NCBI GenBank assembly: GCA_046710535.1
Contig: JBKEHH010000003.1
Location: 187,969 to 251,968 of the forward strand
Source of the DNA: Pseudomonadales bacterium
GTDB lineage: Bacteria > Pseudomonadota > Gammaproteobacteria > Pseudomonadales > CAWVSB01
Direction: 5' to 3'
Length of the DNA: 64,000 nt
Positions 12,911-27,039 of the stretch are shown piece by piece; positions within the stretch are counted from its first letter, which is position 1, and each line of letters starts with the position of its first letter. Position numbers and translations under genes: made by a program. The notes under the pieces are model-generated. The model was not told the origin of the DNA, did no database searches, and saw only the letters and a list, made by a program, of their open reading frames with translations.

Positions 12911-14430
12911 TCAGCGAGTAGTTTCTGCAACATAAGCCGCTAAAGCCGCAATTTCATCACTACTGAGCTGAGCTCCAAACGAAGGCATAATGCCCACACC
13001 TTGGCTTACCGCCTGCGCAACTTGGGCCTCAGTTGGCTTTAGTACATTCAGATTAGGGCCTACCGCGCCCTGACTACCAGCGTCAGCTAAGGTATGGCAA
13101 ACGCCACAGTTTGGCTGTGCTTTAGCTAAATAGATGTCTTTCCCCTCCAGTGCTTTGGCAGACAGTTTAGTTGGTGTTTTCACCACCGCTGCTACCACTG
13201 TGGCAGCCATTGCAGCCACCTTTTTAGGTGCTGGCACAAACTTAGGTAACTCACTCACCACGTTAATCTCTAAGCCAGCATCCTCCCAACTGGTATTACC
13301 ATAACCGCGATGATTCTCTTTGCGTTTTTGAGGTTGCATAGCGCCAGCCATATCTGTCGCCCGTGAAACATAACGAGTCTTACCTAAGGACAAATCTACC
13401 TCGTGCTTAAACGTGCGCCAAGCATCCACGCCGAGATCTGGTCCAACTAATTCGGCTGGCTCCCAGCTTCTTCCATGGTCAGCAGACACTTCTACTTTTT
13501 TAATCCCACGTTCACCAGAAAATGCTACCCCGTACACATAATGACGGCCGGGCAGCACTGGCGTGTCATCTGCGCCGGGACCATTAATCCACGACTTCAC
13601 CTCCATGCGCCACATAGATGGATGCTGCGGCCCGCCGCTTTCGCCAATGTCACGATCGCGATAGCCGGTTTGCTGAATTTCAGCAGCGGACTCTGCCGGC
13701 GTAGCCGCTAGCTTTTTAACCCACTTAACATTGTTAACGCCATAGTAGCCCGGCACAATTAAGCGCAATGGGTCAACGATATTGGGGCGCCATTCATTTC
13801 CCACGCCAACATGCAGTCTTTTAAGCCCTTTTCTAACAATACTGAACGCTGTACCGCTACTTGATCAAAATCTATGCCTGCCGGAATTGTTTCACCACCG
13901 GTTGTGGTCAAAAACTTAAGGCCGTCTTTTACGCCACCGAACAGTTCAAACACATCGCTAACTAAAACTCCTGTCCACAGCGCACAACCCGCAGCGCCAA
14001 TACTCCATTGCGAACCTGAAGGTTTATGCGGGGAAAACGCTCGACCATTCCCGGAGCACTGCAATACAGTCGCCACAGTGCTAGTATTCATTCGTTTTAG
14101 CTCTAATAAACTTAGGCTACCAGTTCTTTCTGCGCCCGCTACCTCAAAGCGCCAACCATCTCTATTTTCAATAATCGCGGCATCAGGCATAGGTAAATTA
14201 TTGCGCACAAAAAAATGTGACTCAGGCGTAATAGGACTAAAACCAAAGCTAGAGCGCATGGTTTCTAAAGCCCAAGGCCGTTCACTATGAATGAGAAAAG
14301 TGGCTTCTTCTTTGCTGCGAGGCATGGGCCGGGTTAGTGCTGCCGACGCAGCCCAACGCAGTGGCGCTGCTACCATTGCGCTAGTACCTGCTAATGCTTT
14401 GATCATAAAACGACGATTAAAGTGAGCCAT
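12911..14430 (-). pseudogene. Frameshifted sulfite oxidase-family (SorT-like) Mo enzyme fused to C-terminal cytochrome c (SorU-like)
   Basis: Tat-like 'NRRFMIK', 'FFVRNN', Mo-ligand 'LQCSGNGR', 'LAWEMNG' in ORF 13759-14475; 'PLRLIVPGYYGVNNVKWV', dimerisation domain and CGVCH heme motif in ORF 12911-13804; frame break near 13770. Confidence 0.85.
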
Positions 14431-14567
14431 CGGTAAATCCATCTTGTTATTATTAACTATGCCTGCCGACAACAATAAGACCGACTATATTCATTTCAGT
14501 ATAGGTGAGCGCACCAATAACCGATATGCAAAATCCGCATTACAATCAACTCTATTTTAATGTTGCC

Positions 14568-16310
14568 CTAGCGTACGCCAGTGTCATTTACCGCTAAATC
14601 TGTCCATGCTTGATAATGACTAAGATAAACCTTGCCCGATAATTTATCTAAAAAATCTGTCTGTTTAAGCCGATCTAATACCGGCCCCTTAATTTCTGAC
14701 AGATGAAATTTTATACCAGCCGCAATTAACAGTTGATTAATAGAGTTAAGGCTCTCTAAACCCGTGCTGTCGATTTTATTAATTGCCGAACACAATAGGA
14801 CAAAGTGTTTAGCACATGCATGCTCTGCAACCAAAGCATTCACCTTGTCTTCAAGAAAACGTGCATTGGCAAAATACAAACTTTCGTCAACCCGAAAACT
14901 AACAAACTGTTCGCACTGCTCCACCTCATGTCTATCTATATTACGAAAATGCTCTGTTCCCGGTACTTTACCCAACACTGCAATATGAGGATTACTTGAA
15001 TTGTATAAGTGTAAAACAATTGCCAGGATTACGCCGCTAATCAAACCTAGCTCAACGCCTTGGGCTAAGGTAATAACAACGGTTAACAACCATGCTGCAA
15101 AATCTTGCCTACTATAGCGCCAAGTGCGCCTCATCGCGTCAAAGTCAATCAAGGAGGTCACTGCCAACATTATCATCGCCGCTAAAGTGGCTATAGGAAG
15201 GTAGTAAAGTGCAGAGGTAAAAAACACTGCAGTAACACCAACACCAACTGCGCCAAAGGCTCCTGCTGCGGGGGTTCTGGCGCCGGCATTAAAGCTGACA
15301 GCCGACCGCGATAAACTAGCAGACAAGGGAAACGCACCCGATATACCCGATGCTAAATTAGCCATGCCCAAGCCAATCGCCTCCTGGTTGGGATCAATTC
15401 TTTCGCGTCTTTTTGCGGCAAAGGACTGGGCTACTGACAAGGCGCTAACATAACCAATAATACTAATTAATACTGCTGAGGTAAGTAGGCTTTTCCAGGT
15501 TGCAACATCCCACTCTAAATTTTTCCATGCAGCTATTTGTAAGGTGGGCAAACCCTGGGGAATACTACCAACGATGGCAACACCTTGTTTATCTAAAGTA
15601 AAAAATTGAACTAAAAATATCGACAGTATAATTACAATAATCGGAGTGCTCTTGGAAAGAAATATTGCCCAAGGCTCGGCGCAACCAAACGCCATCGCTA
15701 AGCGCTTGATACCAGCAGGCATCAACCAAAGTAATAAATATGCCACTACACCTATTAGTACGGTGTGTCAGTTTATATAGTCAATCTGCGACAACAAGCT
15801 AGCCAGTAAAGCCAACAAACTACCACCGCTACTATGCACGCCTAATAGATGGCCGAACTGGCTCACCATAATCACTAGCGCTGACGCAGAAATAAAACCA
15901 GATACCACCGGAAAACTCAAAAAATTGCTCAATAAGCCCAATCGGAGCAAACCAAACAGTAGTAATAATGTACCACTCATCAGCGCCAGTATGACAGCAC
16001 CGGCTAGATAGTTTACTAAGTTTCCGTCAGGAAATACCGCCGCCAAAGCAGACGCTGTCATAATTGAAGATATTGCAAATGGTCCAACAGATAGGGCGCT
16101 ACTGGTACCAAAGACGGCATAAATCATTAACGGGAAGATACTGGCATACAAACCCAACTGTGGCGGCAAGCCTGCTAATAGCGCATAAGCCAGCGATTGC
16201 GGCACTAACATCATGGCAATAAGAATAGCCGCGACAACATCATCTCTGAATAAATCTAGTTGGTAGTTTTGACCCCAATCTAAGATTGGGAAAAACTTTT
16301 TCACTGACAT
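14568..16310 (-). pseudogene. SulP family anion/sulfate transporter with in-frame nonsense codon
   Basis: 'PQSLAYALLAGLPPQLGLYAS' in 5' part, 'SLSRSAV' and STAS domain 'RVDESLYFANA' in 3' part; both ORFs in the same frame separated by one TGA at 15770-15768. Confidence 0.88.
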
Positions 16311-18651: not shown

Positions 18652-19448
18652 GTTTAAAAGACTATCAGCGGCAAATAGCGGATACCGGGATTTATGTTAG
18701 CCCCATAGGTTTAGGTACAGTAAAGCTTGGCCGCGACCAAGGCGTAAAATACCCCGCCAGCTTTGTAATTCCGGATGATAAAACAGCGCTAGAATTATTA
18801 GCTGTGGCCAAAGACTGCAGTATTAATTTAATAGATACTGCTCCTGCTTATGGCATAAGCGAACAGCGCCTTGGTAAATTACTAAAAGGACAGCGCGACG
18901 ACTGGGTTATTTGCAGTAAAGTAGGCGAAGAGTTTATCGACGGAAAATCGCATTTCGACTTTACCCCAGAGCATACTCACACCAGTATTTTGCGTAGCCT
19001 TAGCCGACTAAATACCGATGTTATCGATATGGTATTGGTGCATTCTGATGGCAATGACGAACACATTATTAATCACTATGGCACCTTAGAAGTGCTGCGA
19101 GACTTAAAACAAAAAGGCCTAATAAGAGCTTTTGGCATGTCGACTAAAACAGTAGCCGGTGGCTTATTAGCAGCAGAAAAAAGTGATTGTGTAATGATGA
19201 CTCACAATCTGGACTATCAAGATGATGCTGCTGTTTTAGATTATTGCGCGGTCAACAATAAAGGCGTATTAATTAAAAAAGCCTTAGGCTCTGGCCATGC
19301 TTGTTTAAATAATGACGATACAGTGCAAGCAAATTTAGATTTCATTTTTCAGCATGCTGCGGTCAGTAGTGTAATTATTGGCACAATTAACACCACTCAC
19401 TTAATTGAAAACAGCCGCAAAGCACTTGCTGCATGTCGAAAAACCTGA
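18648..19448 (+). CDS. Aldo/keto reductase
   Basis: 'IGLGTVKLGR', 'IDTAPAYGISE', 'SKVGEEF', 'VLVHSDG'; ATGA overlap with upstream gene. Confidence 0.9.
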   Translation: MSLKDYQRQIADTGIYVSPIGLGTVKLGRDQGVKYPASFVIPDDKTALELLAVAKDCSINLIDTAPAYGISEQRLGKLLKGQRDDWVICSKVGEEFIDGKSHFDFTPEHTHTSILRSLSRLNTDVIDMVLVHSDGNDEHIINHYGTLEVLRDLKQKGLIRAFGMSTKTVAGGLLAAEKSDCVMMTHNLDYQDDAAVLDYCAVNNKGVLIKKALGSGHACLNNDDTVQANLDFIFQHAAVSSVIIGTINTTHLIENSRKALAACRKT

Positions 19449-19459
19449 CTCTTTTAAAG

Positions 19460-20884
19460 CTAAGATTTATCTGCCTGAATTTTTTCTACAATCGCTGTAG
19501 TAGAGCAATCATCGACAAAGCTCATTACCTTAACCACGCCACCATAAGCTTCAACGATTTTCCAACCAACAACACCTTCTTTGTCGTAGTCACCGCCTTT
19601 AACCAAAATATCAGGCTGCAATAACTCAAGTAGCCGTTCTGGAGTGTCGTCACCGAAATCTAACACCCAATCAACTGACTCTAGCCCAGCTAAAACCGCT
19701 TTGCGTCTATCAACTGTATTGATCGGCCGACCCGGCCCCTTTAGTTTTGACACTGAGGCGTCGTCATTGATACCGACAATTAGACGGTCGCCTAATTTTC
19801 GCGCCTGCTCTAAGTAGCTGACGTGGCCGGCATGAATAATGTCGAAGCAGCCATTGGTAAAGACAACAGTTTCGCCTTGCTCTTTAGCATCTTTCATCGC
19901 GATAACTAACTGATCTTCGCTAACCACGCCGCGGCCGCTGCCATGGAGTGCATTAACCGCGCGCCGCAGTTCTGGCCCACTTATAGTTGCGGTACCCAAT
20001 TTACCGACCACAATACTGGCCGCTAAGTTGGCCAACGTCACTGCATTTTCCATCGACTCTTCTACCGCAAGGCTTGCGGCCAAAGCCGAAATAACAGTAT
20101 CGCCAGCACCAGTTACATCAAATACTTCTTTTGCTTGCGCCGGCAAATGAAACACTGGCTGATTAGGGCGCAATAAAGACATGCCATTTTCACCACGAGT
20201 TACTAGTAAGGCATCAAGTTCTAGCTCTGCAATCAGCGCTAGGCCACGCTCTACTATTTGTGCCTCACTCTCACATTTACCTACCACTGCTTCAAATTCT
20301 GCCAGATTTGGCGTCAGTAGAGTTGCACCTTTGTAACGCCCAAAGTCGCTACCTTTTGGGTCAACCAACACCGGTATGCCCTGCGCTTTGGCCGCAGCAA
20401 TTAATTCTTGCGGCGCTGCCAATGTGCCCTTGGCATAGTCAGACAAGATAATCGCTTGAGCAGAGCCAAATAACTCAATAGCGCTGCTATTTGTTCTATT
20501 GGCCGCCGCTATCGGAATGTCTTCTTCAAAGTCCAAGCGAATCAATTGCTGATGCTGGCTAATAACACGCAGCTTGGTAATAGTAGGGAAGTCATCGCTG
20601 CGATTTAGGCCACAATACACGCCAGCGGCTGCTAGCCTGGATTGCAAGCTATCGGCGGCTGCATCATTACCTGTGGCGCCACTAATCAAGGCGCCGCAGC
20701 CCAACGCTGCAAGGTTTAAGGCAACGTTTGCTGCGCCGCCAGGGCGATCTTCGATTTGGGTTACTTTAACCACCGGCACCGGTGCTTCCGGAGACAGCCT
20801 TGAAGCTGGGCCATGCCAATACCGATCAAGCATTACATCGCCAATGACTAATACATTGCCTTTATCAAACCGTGGCATCTTCAT
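19460..20884 (-). CDS. hldE: Bifunctional D-glycero-beta-D-manno-heptose-7-phosphate kinase/heptose-1-phosphate adenylyltransferase
   Basis: 'GDVMLDRYW', 'SPEAPVPV', 'DVTGAGDT', 'FTNGCFDIIHAGHVSYL', 'VKGGDY'. Confidence 0.97.
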   Translation of the reverse strand: MKMPRFDKGNVLVIGDVMLDRYWHGPASRLSPEAPVPVVKVTQIEDRPGGAANVALNLAALGCGALISGATGNDAAADSLQSRLAAAGVYCGLNRSDDFPTITKLRVISQHQQLIRLDFEEDIPIAAANRTNSSAIELFGSAQAIILSDYAKGTLAAPQELIAAAKAQGIPVLVDPKGSDFGRYKGATLLTPNLAEFEAVVGKCESEAQIVERGLALIAELELDALLVTRGENGMSLLRPNQPVFHLPAQAKEVFDVTGAGDTVISALAASLAVEESMENAVTLANLAASIVVGKLGTATISGPELRRAVNALHGSGRGVVSEDQLVIAMKDAKEQGETVVFTNGCFDIIHAGHVSYLEQARKLGDRLIVGINDDASVSKLKGPGRPINTVDRRKAVLAGLESVDWVLDFGDDTPERLLELLQPDILVKGGDYDKEGVVGWKIVEAYGGVVKVMSFVDDCSTTAIVEKIQADKS

Positions 20885-21053
20885 TAAAGAGCGCGTCCTG
20901 TTTTATTTATAGTAATAATCTATTAGTCCCGATTATAGGTCAGCTAGAGCGCTACATAAATGAGTAATTTCCACCGTATATTGCTGCCTTCAGTTGCTAG
21001 CCAAATGGCTTTACGCTACTGTTCCATGCCTAAAAACTACTGAGTTAGCTACT

Positions 21054-21665
21054 ATGCAACTGCCTGCCAATATCGATTCTCTAAAAGGTTTTCTGCATCC
21101 GGAGGAAGGAGCAGCTTTATATAACGCAGTAATGCAGTGCCAAGGCCTAGGCCCAGCCCTAGAGATCGGTAGCTACTGTGGTAAATCGACTATATATATT
21201 GGCGCCGCCTGCAAGGAAACTAACACCACAGTATTTGCACTCGACCACCATCGCGGCAGTGAAGAACATCAAGTTGGCGAGATGTTTCATGACGAAGAGT
21301 TATTTGATGGCAGTACTGGTTATTTCGACACCTTTAAAGAATTCAGAAAAAATATTCAAGAGGCAGGCTTAAACGAGGTAGTAGTTCCGCTGGTGAGCAC
21401 CTCAGAAGTAGCCGCCAAAAACTGGCATACGCCACTGGCAATGGTATTTATTGATGGTGGTCATAGCTTAGATGCGGCATTAACCGATTACCGCTGTTGG
21501 GCAAGCCATATACCAGCAGGCGGCATATTAGCTATCCATGATGTATTTACAAAATCCACTGAAGGCGGGCAAGCGCCCCATGCTATTTACAAGTTAGCGC
21601 TTAACTCAGGACTTTTCGAGCACCTTAGCACTACTCATTCCTTGCGCTTGTTGCGCCGGCTCTAA
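21054..21665 (+). CDS. Class I SAM-dependent methyltransferase (Methyltransf_24; MeT1-like)
   Basis: 'KGFLHPEEG', 'EIGSYCGKST', 'DHHRGSEEHQ', 'FIDGGHS', 'IHDVF...GGQAP'. Confidence 0.85.
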   Translation: MQLPANIDSLKGFLHPEEGAALYNAVMQCQGLGPALEIGSYCGKSTIYIGAACKETNTTVFALDHHRGSEEHQVGEMFHDEELFDGSTGYFDTFKEFRKNIQEAGLNEVVVPLVSTSEVAAKNWHTPLAMVFIDGGHSLDAALTDYRCWASHIPAGGILAIHDVFTKSTEGGQAPHAIYKLALNSGLFEHLSTTHSLRLLRRL

Positions 21666-22709
21666 TAGCTGCACGCTATTAAATAATTTACTGGCGCGGG
21701 TGTGATTTGTTAACGCGTCAGCCGCTAATAGAATAGCGCCTGCGGTCCATGTTGGTTTTTCATCAGGCCACATAATATCCATCACCATTTGATAGCCAGT
21801 CCAGTATGAGCCATCGTCGCTGCGCCATTGATGCAGCCAGCTATAAACCTCTACTGCACGGGCATGGTCGCCTGCGGCTAGCAGTGCCATCACTAATTCG
21901 CACGACTCTGCTACTGTCACCCAAGGCTCATCGCTAACGCAACGACAACCCAGCTGGTCTTCAACAAACTCTTCCCAGCGCGCATCTATGCGAGCAAGCG
22001 CTTTGGCTTTGTCGGCAGAGCTATTTGAATAAACACCGCATAGCACAGGATAAAACCAATCCATAGAATAACGCGCTTTGCTTTCCCAAGTACGATCAAA
22101 CCGCTCTGGGTGATTGCGCAATGCGTTACCTAAATTTTCACGCGCGACTAACCAAGTAGAATTATCAAACGCTAATGCGGCTGCAATATTACTGGCACAC
22201 TCCAGACTTTTATAAATAGAGCTACAGCCGGTTATCAACGCATCTTCTTTCGCATTGCCGTCAGTGTCTACTGCCCAGTGAATCTCGCCATGCTCGGTTT
22301 GCAGGCGCAAGACAAATTCTATAGCACGCTTTACTGTGGGCCATATTAATTGCAAAAATTGCTGATCTTCAGTGACCAAATAATGATGCCAAACACCAGT
22401 AGCAATATAGGCAACAAAATTTGTTTCGCGACGCTCTTTATTGTCGGCATCACTATTTTTATAAGCGGCCCACCAACTACCATCATCGAGTTGCTCATCG
22501 GCTAACCACTGATAGGCTTTTTTGGCGGCGTCAAATTCACCGCCAATAGTTAAACCCATAGCCGCTTCAACATGATCCCAAGGGTCGGCATGACCACCAG
22601 TAAACCAGGGAATTTCGCCACTAGCTAATTGAGTCTCTAAAATAAACTCAACCGCTGGCCGAAAAAAATCCTGCGGATAAATGCCTCGACTTAAATATAC
22701 GCCGCTCAT
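21606..22709 (-). CDS. (alpha/alpha)6-barrel protein usually annotated 'prenyltransferase'; MmpH-like glycoside hydrolase
   Basis: 'GEIPWFTGGHADPWDHVEAAMGL', 'YIATGVWHHYL', 'RYSMDWFYPVL', 'GCRCVSDEPWVTVAESCEL', 'DGSYWTGY'. Confidence 0.75.
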   Translation of the reverse strand: MSGVYLSRGIYPQDFFRPAVEFILETQLASGEIPWFTGGHADPWDHVEAAMGLTIGGEFDAAKKAYQWLADEQLDDGSWWAAYKNSDADNKERRETNFVAYIATGVWHHYLVTEDQQFLQLIWPTVKRAIEFVLRLQTEHGEIHWAVDTDGNAKEDALITGCSSIYKSLECASNIAAALAFDNSTWLVARENLGNALRNHPERFDRTWESKARYSMDWFYPVLCGVYSNSSADKAKALARIDARWEEFVEDQLGCRCVSDEPWVTVAESCELVMALLAAGDHARAVEVYSWLHQWRSDDGSYWTGYQMVMDIMWPDEKPTWTAGAILLAADALTNHTRASKLFNSVQLLEPAQQAQGMSSAKVLEKS

Positions 22710-23422
22710 GCTGTTGTCTCGTTACGAAAATACATCACCACACTTTTGCCCATAATGGGGTTCAACAAAGACTCTGTGGTACGAGTAATCCATGGGCGTT
22801 CCATTAAATCCCACACTAGTAATTTATGATACCAACTTACCAGCTTTGACTTTTCGCGGTTCTCCCACGATGCACATTGCAACCACCAATATGGCGAATG
22901 CAAGGCATGGGCCCAGTGACGTTTATAACGATTAAACCCTAACGACTCTATAGCGTCTTTAAATTGTTTCGAGGTAAAGATACGCAAGTGCCCGCCTTCA
23001 TTGGCATGGTATTCATCGCTTAACATCCAGCAAATTTTCTCCGGCCAGTAACGTGGCACACTGGCACAAAAAATACCCTCTGGTTTAAGCACGCGCTTTA
23101 TTTCTACCAAGGCGGCCTCCCAATCAGGGATATGTTCTAACACCTCAGAACACAAGACTTTGTCAAAAGTGTTATCAGCAAATGGCAGGCTTAAGGCATC
23201 GGCATTAGACAAATGGAAGGCGCGGTTTTTATCTTCAGGCGCGGCAAACATTTGGTATTTTTGTTTTGCTGTCGCTAAGTCTTTAAGGCACAAATCAACC
23301 CCAACTGACTCTACTTCTGCTTCGATATAAACCGAAATCACATGTCTTCCTTCACCGCAGCCTAAGTCTAAAACTTTGTCGCCGGCGCTGAGCTCAAACA
23401 GCTTGTAATCAACTGTCTGCAT
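22706..23422 (-). CDS. Class I SAM-dependent methyltransferase (type 11; putative sugar 3-O-methyltransferase)
   Basis: 'VLDLGCGEGRH', 'SEVLEHIP', 'PEKICWMLSDEYHANEGGHLRI', 'HALHSPYWWL', 'NPIMGKSVVMYF'. Confidence 0.85.
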   Translation of the reverse strand: MQTVDYKLFELSAGDKVLDLGCGEGRHVISVYIEAEVESVGVDLCLKDLATAKQKYQMFAAPEDKNRAFHLSNADALSLPFADNTFDKVLCSEVLEHIPDWEAALVEIKRVLKPEGIFCASVPRYWPEKICWMLSDEYHANEGGHLRIFTSKQFKDAIESLGFNRYKRHWAHALHSPYWWLQCASWENREKSKLVSWYHKLLVWDLMERPWITRTTESLLNPIMGKSVVMYFRNETTA

Positions 23423-24722
23423 TTTGTTCTTCCAATACTTTGTTATAAAACTCGATCATTTCACCTGCTGCTACTTGCCAGCAAAATAGCTCTTCAATTC
23501 GTTTTCTACCAGCCAGCGCATAATGTTCACGCAAGGCTTCATCGTCTAGCAATTTTTTAATCCCATCTGCCAATGCCTGCGCATCTCCTGGCGGCACCTG
23601 TATACCGGCATCACCAACCACCTCTGGCAAAGCCCCACCAGAGCTAGATACTAATGGCACAGCACAAGACATAGCCTCACCAGCCGGCAAACCAAATCCT
23701 TCGTATAAAGACGGCACCACCGCTACTTGCGCCTCGGCGTAATAATCTACCAAGCGCTCAGTAGTAATACCGCTAACAAATTCAATATGGTCAGCGAGTT
23801 TTAATCGTCGAATAAGCTTTGCTGTATCACCATCTTCTTTAGGACGACCGATAATTAGCAATTTAATCTCGGGGTATTCGAGCAATAAAATATGCAGCGC
23901 CTTAAGCAAGTAGCGCAAGCCCTTTAATGGCTGGTCAGCAGATGCAGTAGCCATAATACGATAAGGAATACGTTGAATATTCTCACGCGGTGCAAAGGCT
24001 TCAATGTCGATACCATTATGTACTAGTGAAATACATGATGGCTGCAGGTCAAACGCTGTAGCAATATCATCACGTGAGCTAGCTGACACAGTCACCAAAT
24101 GATTAAGCCTTGAGATAACATACTTCTGCATATAGACAAATGAGTGCCAGCGCTTAATCAACAAATGATCACGAATACGTCGCGCCGCATTTAAAGCTAA
24201 ATCTAGATCTTGGGTAATGGGGTGGTGAACCGTTGTCACCAATGGAAAACCCAGTTTTTGCAGCTTTAACATACCGAATGCCAAACATTGGTTGTCATGA
24301 ATAATGTCGTAGTCGCGGCCATGTTTTTTCAAATAAGCTAGCGCCCGGCGACCAAACGCCTGCGGCTCACCAAAGCCACCAGTGAGTTTGCTCATCCACT
24401 CGATAATATTGGCCCAGGATGTTAAATGATGAGGGCGCAATGAACCCAAGCCGTTGGCATACAAATCCAACGATGGCATTTTAATAAGTTTAACGCGCGG
24501 GTCTAAATGGGGATAAGGCGCACCACTGATAACATCAACCGTGTGCCCCGCATCAACCAAAGCTTTACTCAGATACTTGATGTAAATACCCTGCCCACCG
24601 CTATAAGGATTGCTGCGGTAACCCAATAGACATATTTTTAGCGACTTAGCGCAAGCAGTCTGCTCAACCATAGATTCGTCAAACAACGGTTGTTGTTTTA
24701 TGACACTTGATTCTTGCTGCAT
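23409..24722 (-). CDS. Glycosyltransferase family 4 (ManT-like)
   Basis: 'YRSNPYSGGQGIY', 'HDNQCL', 'TVHHPIT', 'ASADQPLKGL', EX7E motif 'PSLYEGFGLPAGEAM'. Confidence 0.9.
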   Translation of the reverse strand: MQQESSVIKQQPLFDESMVEQTACAKSLKICLLGYRSNPYSGGQGIYIKYLSKALVDAGHTVDVISGAPYPHLDPRVKLIKMPSLDLYANGLGSLRPHHLTSWANIIEWMSKLTGGFGEPQAFGRRALAYLKKHGRDYDIIHDNQCLAFGMLKLQKLGFPLVTTVHHPITQDLDLALNAARRIRDHLLIKRWHSFVYMQKYVISRLNHLVTVSASSRDDIATAFDLQPSCISLVHNGIDIEAFAPRENIQRIPYRIMATASADQPLKGLRYLLKALHILLLEYPEIKLLIIGRPKEDGDTAKLIRRLKLADHIEFVSGITTERLVDYYAEAQVAVVPSLYEGFGLPAGEAMSCAVPLVSSSGGALPEVVGDAGIQVPPGDAQALADGIKKLLDDEALREHYALAGRKRIEELFCWQVAAGEMIEFYNKVLEEQNADS

Positions 24723-24856
24723 AGCTGTTTAATTCCGCCGTTAGGGCTTTGCATTGGCAAACCTTAACTGGTTGCATGACATTAACATGGGCTACTTAAG
24801 CGTGATTGGTGCGCGCAATACGCTTAAACCAGAATGAAGTAGTCCAAAAGCCGCGA

Positions 24857-24885
24857 ATTCTAACGGTTGAGAGGCTAAAAATCCA
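24857..24885 (-). promoter_or_regulatory. Putative sigma70 promoter of the GT4-methyltransferase-hydrolase operon
   Basis: Minus-strand TAGAAT (24862-24857) followed by GC-rich TCGCGGC; weak TGGATT 17 bp upstream. Confidence 0.4.
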
Positions 24886-24993
24886 GTTTTGCAACTAATA
24901 GGCTACTACTGAATACTAGACTAAAGTTGTTTTAATTCAATCAGTTAACTAACTTACCAGCACTTGTTAACAAGCGTTAAATAAGGAATAGGT

Positions 24994-25854
24994 TTATCTC
25001 AATGGCAAATAGGGACGCTTATTGAAATCCCGCCGATATAGCTTGTCCGTTCGCTTAATTACTTTTTGCCAAAAATCTGGCGACGCCTTCAGCTGTTTGC
25101 TAACTTGCGGCCCCAAGTAATAGCGCAAAAATCGCACCAGATCACGCTTGGTCAAACCAATGTCTACCGCCGAAAAATACAGTGATGCCAAATCTTTAAC
25201 TAACCACCGTGTGGGCACTTGCGGGCGCATTTGAGCGCGATGTAGATCAATTAAATAGAGCCTGGGTAAGGCCTTCTCGCCCGCTAGTAGTGGGTCACTA
25301 TTTTTAATCAAAAAGTGGCAGATATAAAAATCTCGATGATTCATACCACCGTTATGCACTGTAGCTGCATCTTTAGCCAAAGCTTCAGTAAGCATCTTAC
25401 GCACCCGATAGCTGGGCGGCATATCTTTCCACGGCGCACAAAAATCTTCTAAGCTGACCATGTTATCCAGTTCTTCAGTCAGCACAAAAGAGAGCTGTTT
25501 GGCCGGATTACTACCCCGTTTGCCAAAACCAACCAGCGACATGGTGCCGACACCTAGTTGGTGTAACTTGTTAATAGCTTCCCATTCGTTAGTCGCGCCA
25601 ATTACCGGCAAGCGCAGCTGAACAAGATTTTTAATAATCTCTAACCACCCCACCCCCATGTGGACTTTAAGAAAATAGCCAGCACCGTTATTTTCAAAAC
25701 GCAGCGTGCGACGACCTTCTTTCTCCCGATAAATTTCGCCCTGCTGTTTTACTACGGCATCAAACGGCTGCGGCCAAAGTGCTTTAAAGTCTTTACGGAG
25801 TTCAAGTCTAGTCACTACTGACTCAGCCGCTTCAGATCCAGTCGAGTCAGACAT
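24994..25854 (-). CDS. waaP: Lipopolysaccharide core heptose(I) kinase
   Basis: 'GRRTLRF', 'GWLEIIKNL...LPVIGATNEW', 'NHRDFYICHFL', 'IDLHRAQ', 'KDLASLYFS'. Confidence 0.95.
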   Translation of the reverse strand: MSDSTGSEAAESVVTRLELRKDFKALWPQPFDAVVKQQGEIYREKEGRRTLRFENNGAGYFLKVHMGVGWLEIIKNLVQLRLPVIGATNEWEAINKLHQLGVGTMSLVGFGKRGSNPAKQLSFVLTEELDNMVSLEDFCAPWKDMPPSYRVRKMLTEALAKDAATVHNGGMNHRDFYICHFLIKNSDPLLAGEKALPRLYLIDLHRAQMRPQVPTRWLVKDLASLYFSAVDIGLTKRDLVRFLRYYLGPQVSKQLKASPDFWQKVIKRTDKLYRRDFNKRPYLPLR

Positions 25855-26974
25855 AGTCACCTTTAGCAATTGCTTCTATTTGCTCAACAGCATGTATTGG
25901 CAGATCATAAATATCGGCACTGGCGGCAAACTTAAGCCCCCGCGGTTGCCACTGTGTTTGCTCATCAAACAACAAGTCTGCAACAGCTTGATCGAGTTGA
26001 TTTTGATTAAAGGGTGATGCCAGCACTATGCCCATATCAAAATCACTAATATAAGAGGAATAGCCACAGACATCAGTAGCAACAACCGGCAAGCCTGCCA
26101 CCATTGCCTCAAGCAATGCTGTACCAGTGTTTTCCCTGTAAGCCGGGTGAATGAGCAGATCAGCCGCTAGCAGTAATTCTGGTATGTCACTGCGCCCGCC
26201 TAAAAAATTGACTTGATTTTCAACGCTCAATTTTTTAATCAAGTAGTTAAACCATTTTGGATTATCTTGCCCTGCCACAAAAAATTTTACTTTAGCTTTT
26301 TCTGCGCTAGGTAAATTAGCCAAAGCAATTATAGCTCGGTCTAAACCTTTAGTTCTAAACCCGCTGCCAACCATCAGCAATAATTTTTCATCATCACTCA
26401 CGCCAAGTTCTACTCGCTTAGCTTTACCTATAGCAGGGCTTTGCTCATTTGCAACTCGGTCGCGGCGAATGCCTGGCGGTAATAAATGCAGCCGTTTTTC
26501 TGGCGTTTGATAATACTGTATAAAAACTTGCTTCTCAGGTTTAGAAATCAATAAAGCGTGAGTACTTACCGCAGTACTAAATACCGCTTTTTCATAGCTT
26601 AAATGATGTTTGTAGCGAGGTAAAAACCGACTAAACCAAGAGCGCAGTTCATAGACTTTAGCGGCAAAGCAACTATCAGCGCCATAGTAAACATCCAAGC
26701 CGGGCATGCGATTAAAGCCAACTAACAGATCTATTTCGTGCTGCTTTAGCACAATCGTCAAAGCCGCTACAAAGCTGGTATCTTTACTAGCGTTACTGCC
26801 ACCCGCCATAGGGACATTCACCACTTCAAGCTGAGGCGGAACATCGCCTTGCCACTGACCACAGAATACTTTGACACTATGGCCACGTTCGACTGCCGCC
26901 AGCGCGATACGCAGCATGTCTTGCTGTAAGCCGCCGAAGGGGAAGTATTTGAATAAGGCAAAAGCTAAGCGCAT
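25847..26974 (-). CDS. waaG: LPS core glycosyltransferase WaaG/RfaG
   Basis: 'AFALFKYFPFGGLQ', 'GFNRMPGLDVYY', 'GSGFRTKGLDR', 'HPAYRENTGTALLEA'. Confidence 0.93.
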   Translation of the reverse strand: MRLAFALFKYFPFGGLQQDMLRIALAAVERGHSVKVFCGQWQGDVPPQLEVVNVPMAGGSNASKDTSFVAALTIVLKQHEIDLLVGFNRMPGLDVYYGADSCFAAKVYELRSWFSRFLPRYKHHLSYEKAVFSTAVSTHALLISKPEKQVFIQYYQTPEKRLHLLPPGIRRDRVANEQSPAIGKAKRVELGVSDDEKLLLMVGSGFRTKGLDRAIIALANLPSAEKAKVKFFVAGQDNPKWFNYLIKKLSVENQVNFLGGRSDIPELLLAADLLIHPAYRENTGTALLEAMVAGLPVVATDVCGYSSYISDFDMGIVLASPFNQNQLDQAVADLLFDEQTQWQPRGLKFAASADIYDLPIHAVEQIEAIAKGDYV

Positions 26975-27039
26975 TGCTTACCCTCAGAGGTGGTTATCGA
27001 TTATGGTATTTATTTGTTTTGATTATACGGCTGATCGGG

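Follow-up and report, generated by a model that had tools for sequence, protein, structure and literature searches.

Polymethylated polysaccharides are regarded, in the sections of PMC9883506 drawn on here, as characteristic of mycobacteria and a small number of related actinomycetes. A stretch of DNA from a marine Gram-negative bacterium of the Pseudomonadales raises the question of whether one such polymer, the methylmannose polysaccharide (MMP), has a wider range. The window, i.e., the whole stretch of 64,000 nucleotides (nt) that was analyzed, spans forward-strand positions 187,969 to 251,968 of contig JBKEHH010000003.1 (assembly GCA_046710535.1), from a 3.19-Mb genome that is 94% complete (G000); coordinates below are window positions. 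At 21054 to 24722 it holds a cassette of four genes resembling manT, pmeT3, mmpH, and meT1 of the mycobacterial MMP cluster. A preliminary description of this DNA had reported four intact adjacent genes there, which the listing of open reading frames (ORFs) bears out, and had matched them to the four MMP families.

Orthology with the actinobacterial MMP cluster

Three of the four predicted proteins have specific relatives among solved structures. Compared with all PDB sequences, the MeT1-like protein matched only 6g7d, 6g80, and 6h40 (6g7d, E = 5.9e-56 over residues 6 to 202), the MmpH-like protein matched 7qsj (E = 1.2e-92), deposited as "Methylmannose polysaccharide hydrolase (MmpH)," and the ManT-like protein matched 7qsg (E = 3.8e-99; next chain, 5.3e-27). 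6g7d, 7qsj, and 7qsg are the solved MeT1, MmpH, and ManT of Mycolicibacterium hassiacum, and the three matches lie far beyond chance. For the pMeT3-like protein no such specific match emerged; RebM (1.7e-13) was the closest PDB sequence. Domain searches assigned Methyltransf_24 to the MeT1-like protein (82.6 bits), Methyltransf_11 to the pMeT3-like protein (79.8 bits), and Glycos_transf_1 and Glyco_transf_4 (113.2 and 84 bits) to the ManT-like protein, in line with the GT4 glycosyltransferase and the two methyltransferase types named in the preliminary description. Its Trp-rich (alpha/alpha)6-barrel-like protein corresponds to the MmpH match; in Pfam this protein has a subthreshold match to the GH95 catalytic domain only (26.6 bits; cutoff, 27). 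No NCBIfam model reached its cutoff for any of the four proteins. All motifs quoted earlier are present in the translations, namely, YRSNPYSGGQGIY; LSDEYHANEGGH and HALHSPYWWL; IPWFTGGHADPWDHVEAAM; and EIGSYCGKST, DHHRGSEE, and FIDGGH.

A mycobacterial-type reference cluster was taken from genome G642, one of 301 sampled genomes of the class holding Streptomyces. Its adjacent MeT1, MmpH, and ManT genes score 372.4 bits against 6g7d, 637.6 against 7qsj, and 747.3 against 7qsg, so that its cluster is closely related to that of M. hassiacum. All four cassette proteins are reciprocal best hits of this cluster, the outcome on which the preliminary description had staked its match to the MMP families. 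In the forward direction, the pMeT3-like protein found the cluster methyltransferase of G642 at E = 5.9e-70 (next match, 6.7e-13), with a similar result in four further genomes; for the ManT-like protein, the cluster ManT scored 311.5 bits and the runner-up 98.6. A single match to the MeT1-like protein was present in each of three mycobacterial-type genomes, inside their cluster, and a single match to the MmpH-like protein was present in G642. In the reverse direction, tblastn of the four G642 proteins against the whole source genome returned the four window genes as best matches, pMeT3 hitting 22727 to 23422 at 1.7e-69 (next, 5.7e-10). Identity to the G642 proteins is 47% for MeT1, 46% for MmpH, 46% for pMeT3, and 41% for ManT.

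Gene order is also shared. The succession manT, pmeT3, mmpH with a convergent meT1 recurs in the same orientation in loci L120, L122, L123, L126, L131, L138, and L139 (locus GC content, 0.68 to 0.70), and it matches the order of the M. hassiacum locus tags MHAS_04402 (ManT), MHAS_04403 (pMeT3), MHAS_04404 (MmpH), and MHAS_04405 (MeT1) as listed in PMC9883506. By sequence and order, the four genes qualify as orthologs of the actinobacterial MMP cluster manT, pmeT3, mmpH, and meT1.

Distribution and inheritance of the gene set

The preliminary description knew the polymer from Actinobacteria and had proposed a survey of cassette co-occurrence; this survey recovered the same gene set from many Gammaproteobacteria, Alphaproteobacteria, Syntrophia, and one haloarchaeon. 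In a sample of the order of the source organism (41 genomes, 38 genera), MmpH homologs occur in 21 genomes and 19 genera, and MeT1 homologs occur in the identical 21 genomes. In a sample of the whole gammaproteobacterial class, an MmpH homolog at E <= 1e-20 is present in only 9 of the 300 scored genomes (one further genome was unscored), and 88 of the 301 genomes of the Actinomycetes sample, G373 included, carry one. In a library of representatives at 50% identity, 274 clusters are MmpH-like at E <= 1e-30, and the count rises to 994 at E <= 1e-10. The pMeT3-like protein has at least 7,980 relatives at E <= 1e-20 in a 90% cluster library, the best matching of which are largely metagenomic and annotated as UbiE-like or generic methyltransferases. 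The orthology could thus lend functional names to thousands of proteins now called "UbiE-like methyltransferase" or left without a name.

A pattern scan of species representatives confirmed at least 593 of 600 candidates, and the locus counts given below refer to the best 80 of these. On the Halieaceae side, the carriers among these 80 include Halieaceae, Halioglobus, Haliea, Seongchinamella, Luminiphilus, and Congregibacter, and they are joined by Spongiibacteraceae, Spongiibacter, Zhongshania, Cellvibrionaceae, Pseudomaricurvus, Microbulbifer, KI89A, and SAR86. Outside the Gammaproteobacteria are Parvibaculum and other Alphaproteobacteria, Smithella, Syntrophaceae, Desulfomonilia, the archaeon Natrinema, and Streptomyces. 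In 77 of the 80 loci the gene immediately upstream of mmpH is pMeT3-like, and ManT is present in 75, the loci without ManT and/or pMeT3 ending at a contig edge; where ManT, Methyltransf_11, and MmpH genes are all present, they are tightly colinear (74 of 75 loci). The same trio is colinear in 20/20 loci of the order relatives, one with a 2-kb gap. MeT1 is looser, being found within the locus in 60 of the 80 and convergent at no more than 300 bp in 47; when not adjacent, it was found elsewhere in the genome in all five genomes tested.

Several loci depart from this pattern. Natrinema sp. 74 carries colinear ManT, pMeT3, and MmpH genes on its chromosome (L083; 47% to 53% identity), and no MeT1 homolog was found anywhere in its genome. 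The Streptomyces loci L104, L107, and L108 resemble the window in their colinear ManT, pMeT3, and MmpH genes (43% to 50% identity to the window proteins) but differ in a nonadjacent MeT1, which lies about 5 kb away in L107 and at a contig end about 14 kb from mmpH in the L104 genome, and in belonging to the Actinomycetes rather than the gammaproteobacterial clade. The griseus species of this genus makes an acetylated MMP (S. griseus; PMC9883506, legend to Fig. 1). In three Syntrophaceae loci (L098:6911-9287, L102:6950-9334, and L105:4512-6926), a hexapeptide acyltransferase and a B12-binding radical S-adenosylmethionine (SAM) protein are encoded between mmpH and meT1, the latter in L105 as a single 804-amino-acid (aa) ORF with both B12-binding and radical SAM domains; these extra genes suggest acylated and/or C-methylated variants of the polymer. 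A 413-aa protein combining a MarR/ArsR-type helix-turn-helix and Methyltransf_11 occupies the same interval in Pseudoteredinibacter (L077:7142-8383). Two proteins, P0153 (590 aa) and P0200 (606 aa), join an N-terminal pMeT3-like part (45% and 42% identical to the window protein) to a C-terminal MmpH-like part and would support a functional link between the two enzymes, unless they are gene-calling artifacts across a 4-nt overlap. In G010 (C14:137582-139691), the MmpH homolog has an in-frame TAA, and a second fragment has a TAG, with an intact MeT1 gene on the same contig; this mmpH may be a decaying copy.

Two unrooted trees of concatenated pMeT3 and MmpH place these genes. FastTree, with 125 rows (long-branch warnings for L025 to L030 and L083), recovered an own-order clade holding the window (66 rows; support, 99), an alphaproteobacterial clade (9 rows; 100), and an Actinomycetes clade (33 rows; 99) whose sister is Thermodesulfobacteriota. 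A short IQ-TREE search on 45 of those rows recovered the Actinomycetes (12 rows; SH-like approximate likelihood ratio test [SH-aLRT], 100), their union with Thermodesulfobacteriota (99), and a gammaproteobacterial clade holding the window (14 rows; 90). The Natrinema locus sits on a long branch beside the Actinomycetes/Thermodesulfobacteriota group. In both trees the gammaproteobacterial genes fall outside the Actinomycetes clade; because the window does not branch from within that clade, a recent transfer out of Actinomycetes is unlikely. Furthermore, the chromosomal slot of the cassette, between ilvE and hldE, recurs across families of the order, which suggests old, mainly vertical inheritance. 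The cassette is thus a widespread and apparently vertically inherited feature of the order rather than a curiosity of one genome. A complete, constrained, and co-inherited gene set in roughly half of the families sampled in a major marine gammaproteobacterial order and in other phyla widens the evolutionary range of the system, the Actinomycetes holding only one clade of a wider MMP gene family.

Proposed pathway and competing explanations

Residues of functional interest named in sections 11 and 14 of PMC9883506 were located in the window proteins through alignments to 7qsj and 7qsg (chain numbers exceed those of the paper by 1 and 26, respectively). The MmpH residues found to be catalytic by mutagenesis in those sections (Asp47, Asp50, and Glu262) are all kept, as are the subsite equivalents of Trp49, Asn101, Phe102, Thr163, Met215, Tyr219, Glu265, and Trp315. 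Among 128 homologs, Asp47, Trp49, Met215, Tyr219, Glu262, and Glu265 are invariant, and position 50 is Asp in 113 and Asn in 15. In ManT, Gly15, His142, Lys240, Glu313, Gly314, Phe315, and Glu321 are invariant in 92/92 homologs, and the window protein keeps the equivalents of all of these together with that of Leu317; Lys240, Glu313, and Glu321 are the positions probed by mutagenesis in the same source. For the pMeT3-like protein, an AlphaFold2 model (predicted local distance difference test score, 94.3) has the sugar O-methyltransferases RebM (3bus; Foldseek E = 4.8e-17) and AtmM (6uv6; 1.2e-15) as its top matches and closest solved folds (TM-score, ~0.65). Both of these methylate sugar hydroxyls, but they are only ~20% identical to it and act on glycosylated indolocarbazoles. 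The pMeT3 family has invariant C-terminal motifs of its own (Y138, G143-G144-H145, and the run H172, L174, H175, P177, W179, and W180).

Hydrophobicity of transmembrane strength is reached in none of the four proteins (Kyte-Doolittle 19-residue maxima, 0.92 to 1.34), and all are predicted to be soluble. The ratio of nonsynonymous to synonymous substitution rates (dN/dS) of the four genes, calculated against a genome of the same genus (G002), is 0.033 to 0.105, indicating purifying selection. A full ManC/GMP-PMI gene (TIGR01479, 714.8 bits; cutoff, 372.95) is present in the source genome, which would provide for the supply of GDP-mannose, and in 21/21 cassette-positive relatives of the order.

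The mycobacterial MMP cluster is reportedly also the subject of a 2019 PNAS article by Ripoll-Rozada et al. With the biosynthesis and recycling cluster presented by Maranha et al. in 2023 (PMC9883506, in the sections used here), the window shares the four reciprocal best hits, gene order and orientation, the catalytic residues of MmpH and ManT, and the predicted solubility of the proteins. It differs in its moderate identity (41% to 47%), its Gram-negative marine host, a Thr in place of ManT Asp293, a 60-nt overlap of the convergent mmpH and meT1 genes, and neighboring genes for the lipopolysaccharide (LPS) core and ADP-heptose.

Orthology, synteny, conserved catalytic residues, purifying selection, co-inheritance, and a GDP-mannose pyrophosphorylase gene have all been observed. 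The four genes most likely direct the formation of a short polymethylated mannan by soluble enzymes in the cytoplasm, a reading to which we assign a probability of roughly 0.72. ManT would extend alpha-(1->4)-mannosides from GDP-mannose, the pMeT3-like Methyltransf_11 enzyme would 3-O-methylate the added mannoses, MeT1 would methylate the reducing-end 1-OH, and MmpH would cut mature chains into oligomers that prime new ones, following the self-recycling scheme described for mycobacteria in PMC9883506. The most likely product would be a soluble cytoplasmic alpha-1,4-mannan, 3-O-methylated and capped by a 1-O-methyl group. Its donor sugar, linkage, methylation positions, cytoplasmic location, and physiological role are what we infer. 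By analogy with what has been proposed for mycobacteria, this role may lie in the buffering of long acyl chains or in cold adaptation. The mycobacterial 6-O-methylglucose lipopolysaccharide (MGLP) offers a functional analogy only: it is another cytoplasmic methylated glycan proposed to sequester acyl-coenzyme A (PMC9883506, same sections), built on a different sugar by a different gene set.

Several points weigh against this pathway. The ManC gene does not discriminate, being also present in 17/20 cassette-negative relatives. For this organism and its relatives the methylmannose polymer is a prediction from genes, and mycobacterial pMeT3 itself is called "putative" in PMC9883506. The equivalent of ManT Asp293 is Thr321 in the window. 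In the modeled complex of that source, Asp293 contacts guanine N2 of GDP-mannose, a contact assigned by modeling and not by mutagenesis. The position is Thr in 42/59 gammaproteobacterial homologs, usually followed by Glu, and Asp in 3/3 Streptomyces homologs with enough coverage. The donor nucleotide could therefore differ and is less certain than the rest. Finally, the cassette lies between waaF-waaG-waaP and hldE, i.e., among LPS core genes.

The substitution in ManT would also suit a chemically different gammaproteobacterial product made by orthologous enzymes, i.e., one with another donor or sugar, another methylation pattern, or the form of only a short oligosaccharide, serving as a compatible solute or cryoprotectant instead of a polymer that binds acyl chains. 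We hold this to be unlikely, if worth keeping in view. Besides Asp293, it draws on the 41% to 47% identity to the characterized enzymes, the extra tailoring genes of the Syntrophia variant clusters, and the occurrence of near-identical DNA in seawater and ice metagenome runs. Against it, every other residue that the cited sections of PMC9883506 name for the donor, mannosyl, and acceptor sites is kept, and the presence of a chain-cutting MmpH whose active site is intact implies that the chains reach a length at which they can be cleaved.

The LPS neighborhood of the cassette had led the preliminary description to suggest co-option for the envelope, where a methylated mannan would decorate the LPS core or form an O-antigen-like addition. 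The position between hldE and waaP is correct (NF008454 and NF011703 for the two flanks), the same arrangement occurs in a genome of the same genus (L011) and in one SAR86 genome (L082), and soluble or peripheral cytoplasmic glycosyltransferases do serve the LPS core, so that the absence of transmembrane segments is no exclusion. Little else favors this proposal, which we now consider improbable. Only one of the 80 best loci has waaP and waaF at the flanks of the cassette and none has waaG there, and in many relatives the cassette directly abuts ilvE or hldE with no waa genes. A waa homolog lies within the examined stretch in 4/20 loci of the order relatives: waaG and waaP adjoin the cassette in L011 and L029, L014 has only a 27%-identical waaF-like match about 3.8 kb from meT1 and beyond hldE, and in L024 a weak waaG-like match overlaps the ManT gene itself. 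In most carriers outside the order, the cassette is not in an LPS context, and the gene set exists without one in Actinomycetes, Syntrophia, Alphaproteobacteria, and an archaeon. No flippase, ABC transporter, ligase, or lipid-carrier gene is found within the cassette. MeT1, which in mycobacteria methylates and thereby blocks the reducing-end 1-OH, is kept and strictly co-inherited, and an endo-hydrolase for recycling the polymer is more easily reconciled with a free cytoplasmic glycan; the retention of both enzymes therefore favors a free glycan. LPS co-option was accordingly rejected as the leading explanation, waa linkage not being conserved across carriers.

That the cassette was recently acquired from Actinobacteria by horizontal transfer, or is a decaying remnant without present function, is very improbable: the MMP system has been described only in Actinobacteria and 88/301 sampled Actinomycetes genomes hold an MmpH homolog, but the trees contradict recent transfer, with Actinomycetes forming a clade of their own in both and the window in that of its order, the ilvE/hldE slot recurs across families, GC content is unremarkable, and the four ORFs are intact under the low dN/dS given above.

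Marine occurrence, lipid metabolism, and locus context

Half or more of the sampled words of the segment from 20900 to 25000 were found in five seawater metagenome runs and one ice metagenome run from four studies, one of which may be the source sample of the genome, and near-identical DNA also occurs in marine-sediment metagenome runs. No RNA run was among the 24 listed as holding such DNA. With respect to cold, an MMP-negative mutant of M. smegmatis grows more slowly at 15°C (PMC9883506, in the part used here).

A link to lipids is suggested by the names and genomes of some carriers. Among them are Zhongshania aliphaticivorans and Pseudomaricurvus hydrocarbonicus, whose names refer to hydrocarbons, and Smithella and Parvibaculum, which are degraders of alkanes or long acyl chains. 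The source genome has five WS/DGAT (PF03007) matches, on contigs C2, C3 (outside the window), C11, C22, and C26, one with an in-frame TAG, and 0/14 control genomes have any; the organism may thus store neutral lipids. The hydrocarbon-linked carriers and these five matches mean that the polymer could be an acyl-chain chaperone in lipid-centered metabolisms. Across the order relatives, WS/DGAT occurs in 14/21 cassette-positive and 8/20 cassette-negative genomes, which is no real support for an association (Fisher P = 0.12, for genomes that are not independent).

The gene set is common in marine bacteria, and the MMP pathway is therefore probably not special to mycobacteria and their relatives. 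More tentatively, and with rather less confidence than in the pathway itself, polymethylated mannans could be a widespread cytoplasmic polymer rather than an actinobacterial specialty, acting as a general long-acyl-chain chaperone and/or cold-adaptation factor and contributing, on lysis, methyl sugars to marine dissolved organic matter (DOM). Its makers may include Halieaceae/OM60-NOR5, Luminiphilus, Spongiibacteraceae, KI89A, SAR86, and Cellvibrionaceae among the abundant marine bacterioplankton, as well as Parvibaculum-like Alphaproteobacteria, the syntrophic Smithella/Syntrophaceae, and at least one haloarchaeon. Methyl sugars make up a large fraction of the polysaccharide of marine high-molecular-weight DOM, according to the part of PMC4817625 consulted; any connection of the cassette to them is speculation. 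Cultured, nonpathogenic, and easily grown carriers, e.g., Spongiibacter marinus DSM 17750, Zhongshania aliphaticivorans, and Microbulbifer agarilyticus, could serve as models for the role of the polymer.

A literature search returned no report of an MMP cluster outside Actinobacteria among its top-ranked matches, although the supplements of PMC9883506 (150 MmpH and 149 ManT homologs; Table S1 and Fig. S7 and S10) might include nonactinobacterial sequences; the survey in its main sections covers mycobacteria and "related actinobacteria" only. What is new here is the occurrence of this known four-gene system in further phyla, together with one notable variant of an active site and a wide marine range that had gone unremarked.

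Coordinates of the cassette genes and their immediate neighbors are collected in Table 1.

Table 1. Genes of the cassette and its flanks (window positions)
Gene	Position	Strand	Predicted product or location	Basis
hldE	19460-20884		Flank on meT1 side	NF008454, 722.3 bits
meT1-like	21054-21665	+	Putative reducing-end 1-O-methyltransferase, 203 aa from ATG 21054	Methyltransf_24, PDB 6g7d
mmpH-like	21606-22709	-	(alpha/alpha)6-barrel hydrolase, 367 aa, Trp-rich; putative endo-alpha-1,4-mannosidase recycling the polymer	PDB 7qsj
pmeT3-like	22706-23422	-	Class I SAM methyltransferase, 238 aa; putative mannose 3-O-methyltransferase	Methyltransf_11, reciprocal best hit
manT-like	23409-24722	-	GT4 glycosyltransferase, 437 aa; putative alpha-(1->4)-mannosyltransferase	PDB 7qsg
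waaP/rfaP	24994-25869		Flank on manT side	NF011703, 345.6 bits

The three minus-strand genes overlap by 14 nt (manT/pmeT3) and 4 nt (pmeT3/mmpH). Homology to ManT begins near residue 22 to 28, so the true start of manT may be an internal Met; the meT1 frame is also open from an upstream TTG at 20994. The 3' overlap of mmpH and meT1 (21606 to 21665) may couple their expression through antisense or transcriptional interference. Overlap of the aligned stretches of these two genes also occurs in 11 of the 60 loci of the best-80 set that hold MeT1 and in several relatives' loci, e.g., L011, L012, L014, and L020. In GC content, the cassette does not stand out from the remainder of the window. Predicted promoters and terminators were no more common than in shuffled sequence (9 against 7.9 ± 3.0 and 4 against 5.3 ± 2.5), and an Rfam search of 19000 to 27000 at E <= 0.1 found nothing. 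Beyond waaP follow a waaG-like GT4 gene, waaF, an ilvE-like ORF, and a glnE-like ORF, the last two labeled from their translations and tblastn matches in relatives and not from a family search.

Two further loci of the window, on the hldE side, are of note. A sulfite-oxidase-like enzyme at 12911 to 14475 appears divided between two overlapping ORFs in different frames, with Oxidored_molyb in 13759 to 14475 and Mo-co_dimer plus a cytochrome c domain in 12911 to 13804, which may reflect a frameshift or a sequencing error. At 14568 to 15746, a SulP-family permease ORF matches only positions 189 to 380 of the 380 in Sulfate_transp, plus STAS, and its N-terminal half may sit upstream in another frame.

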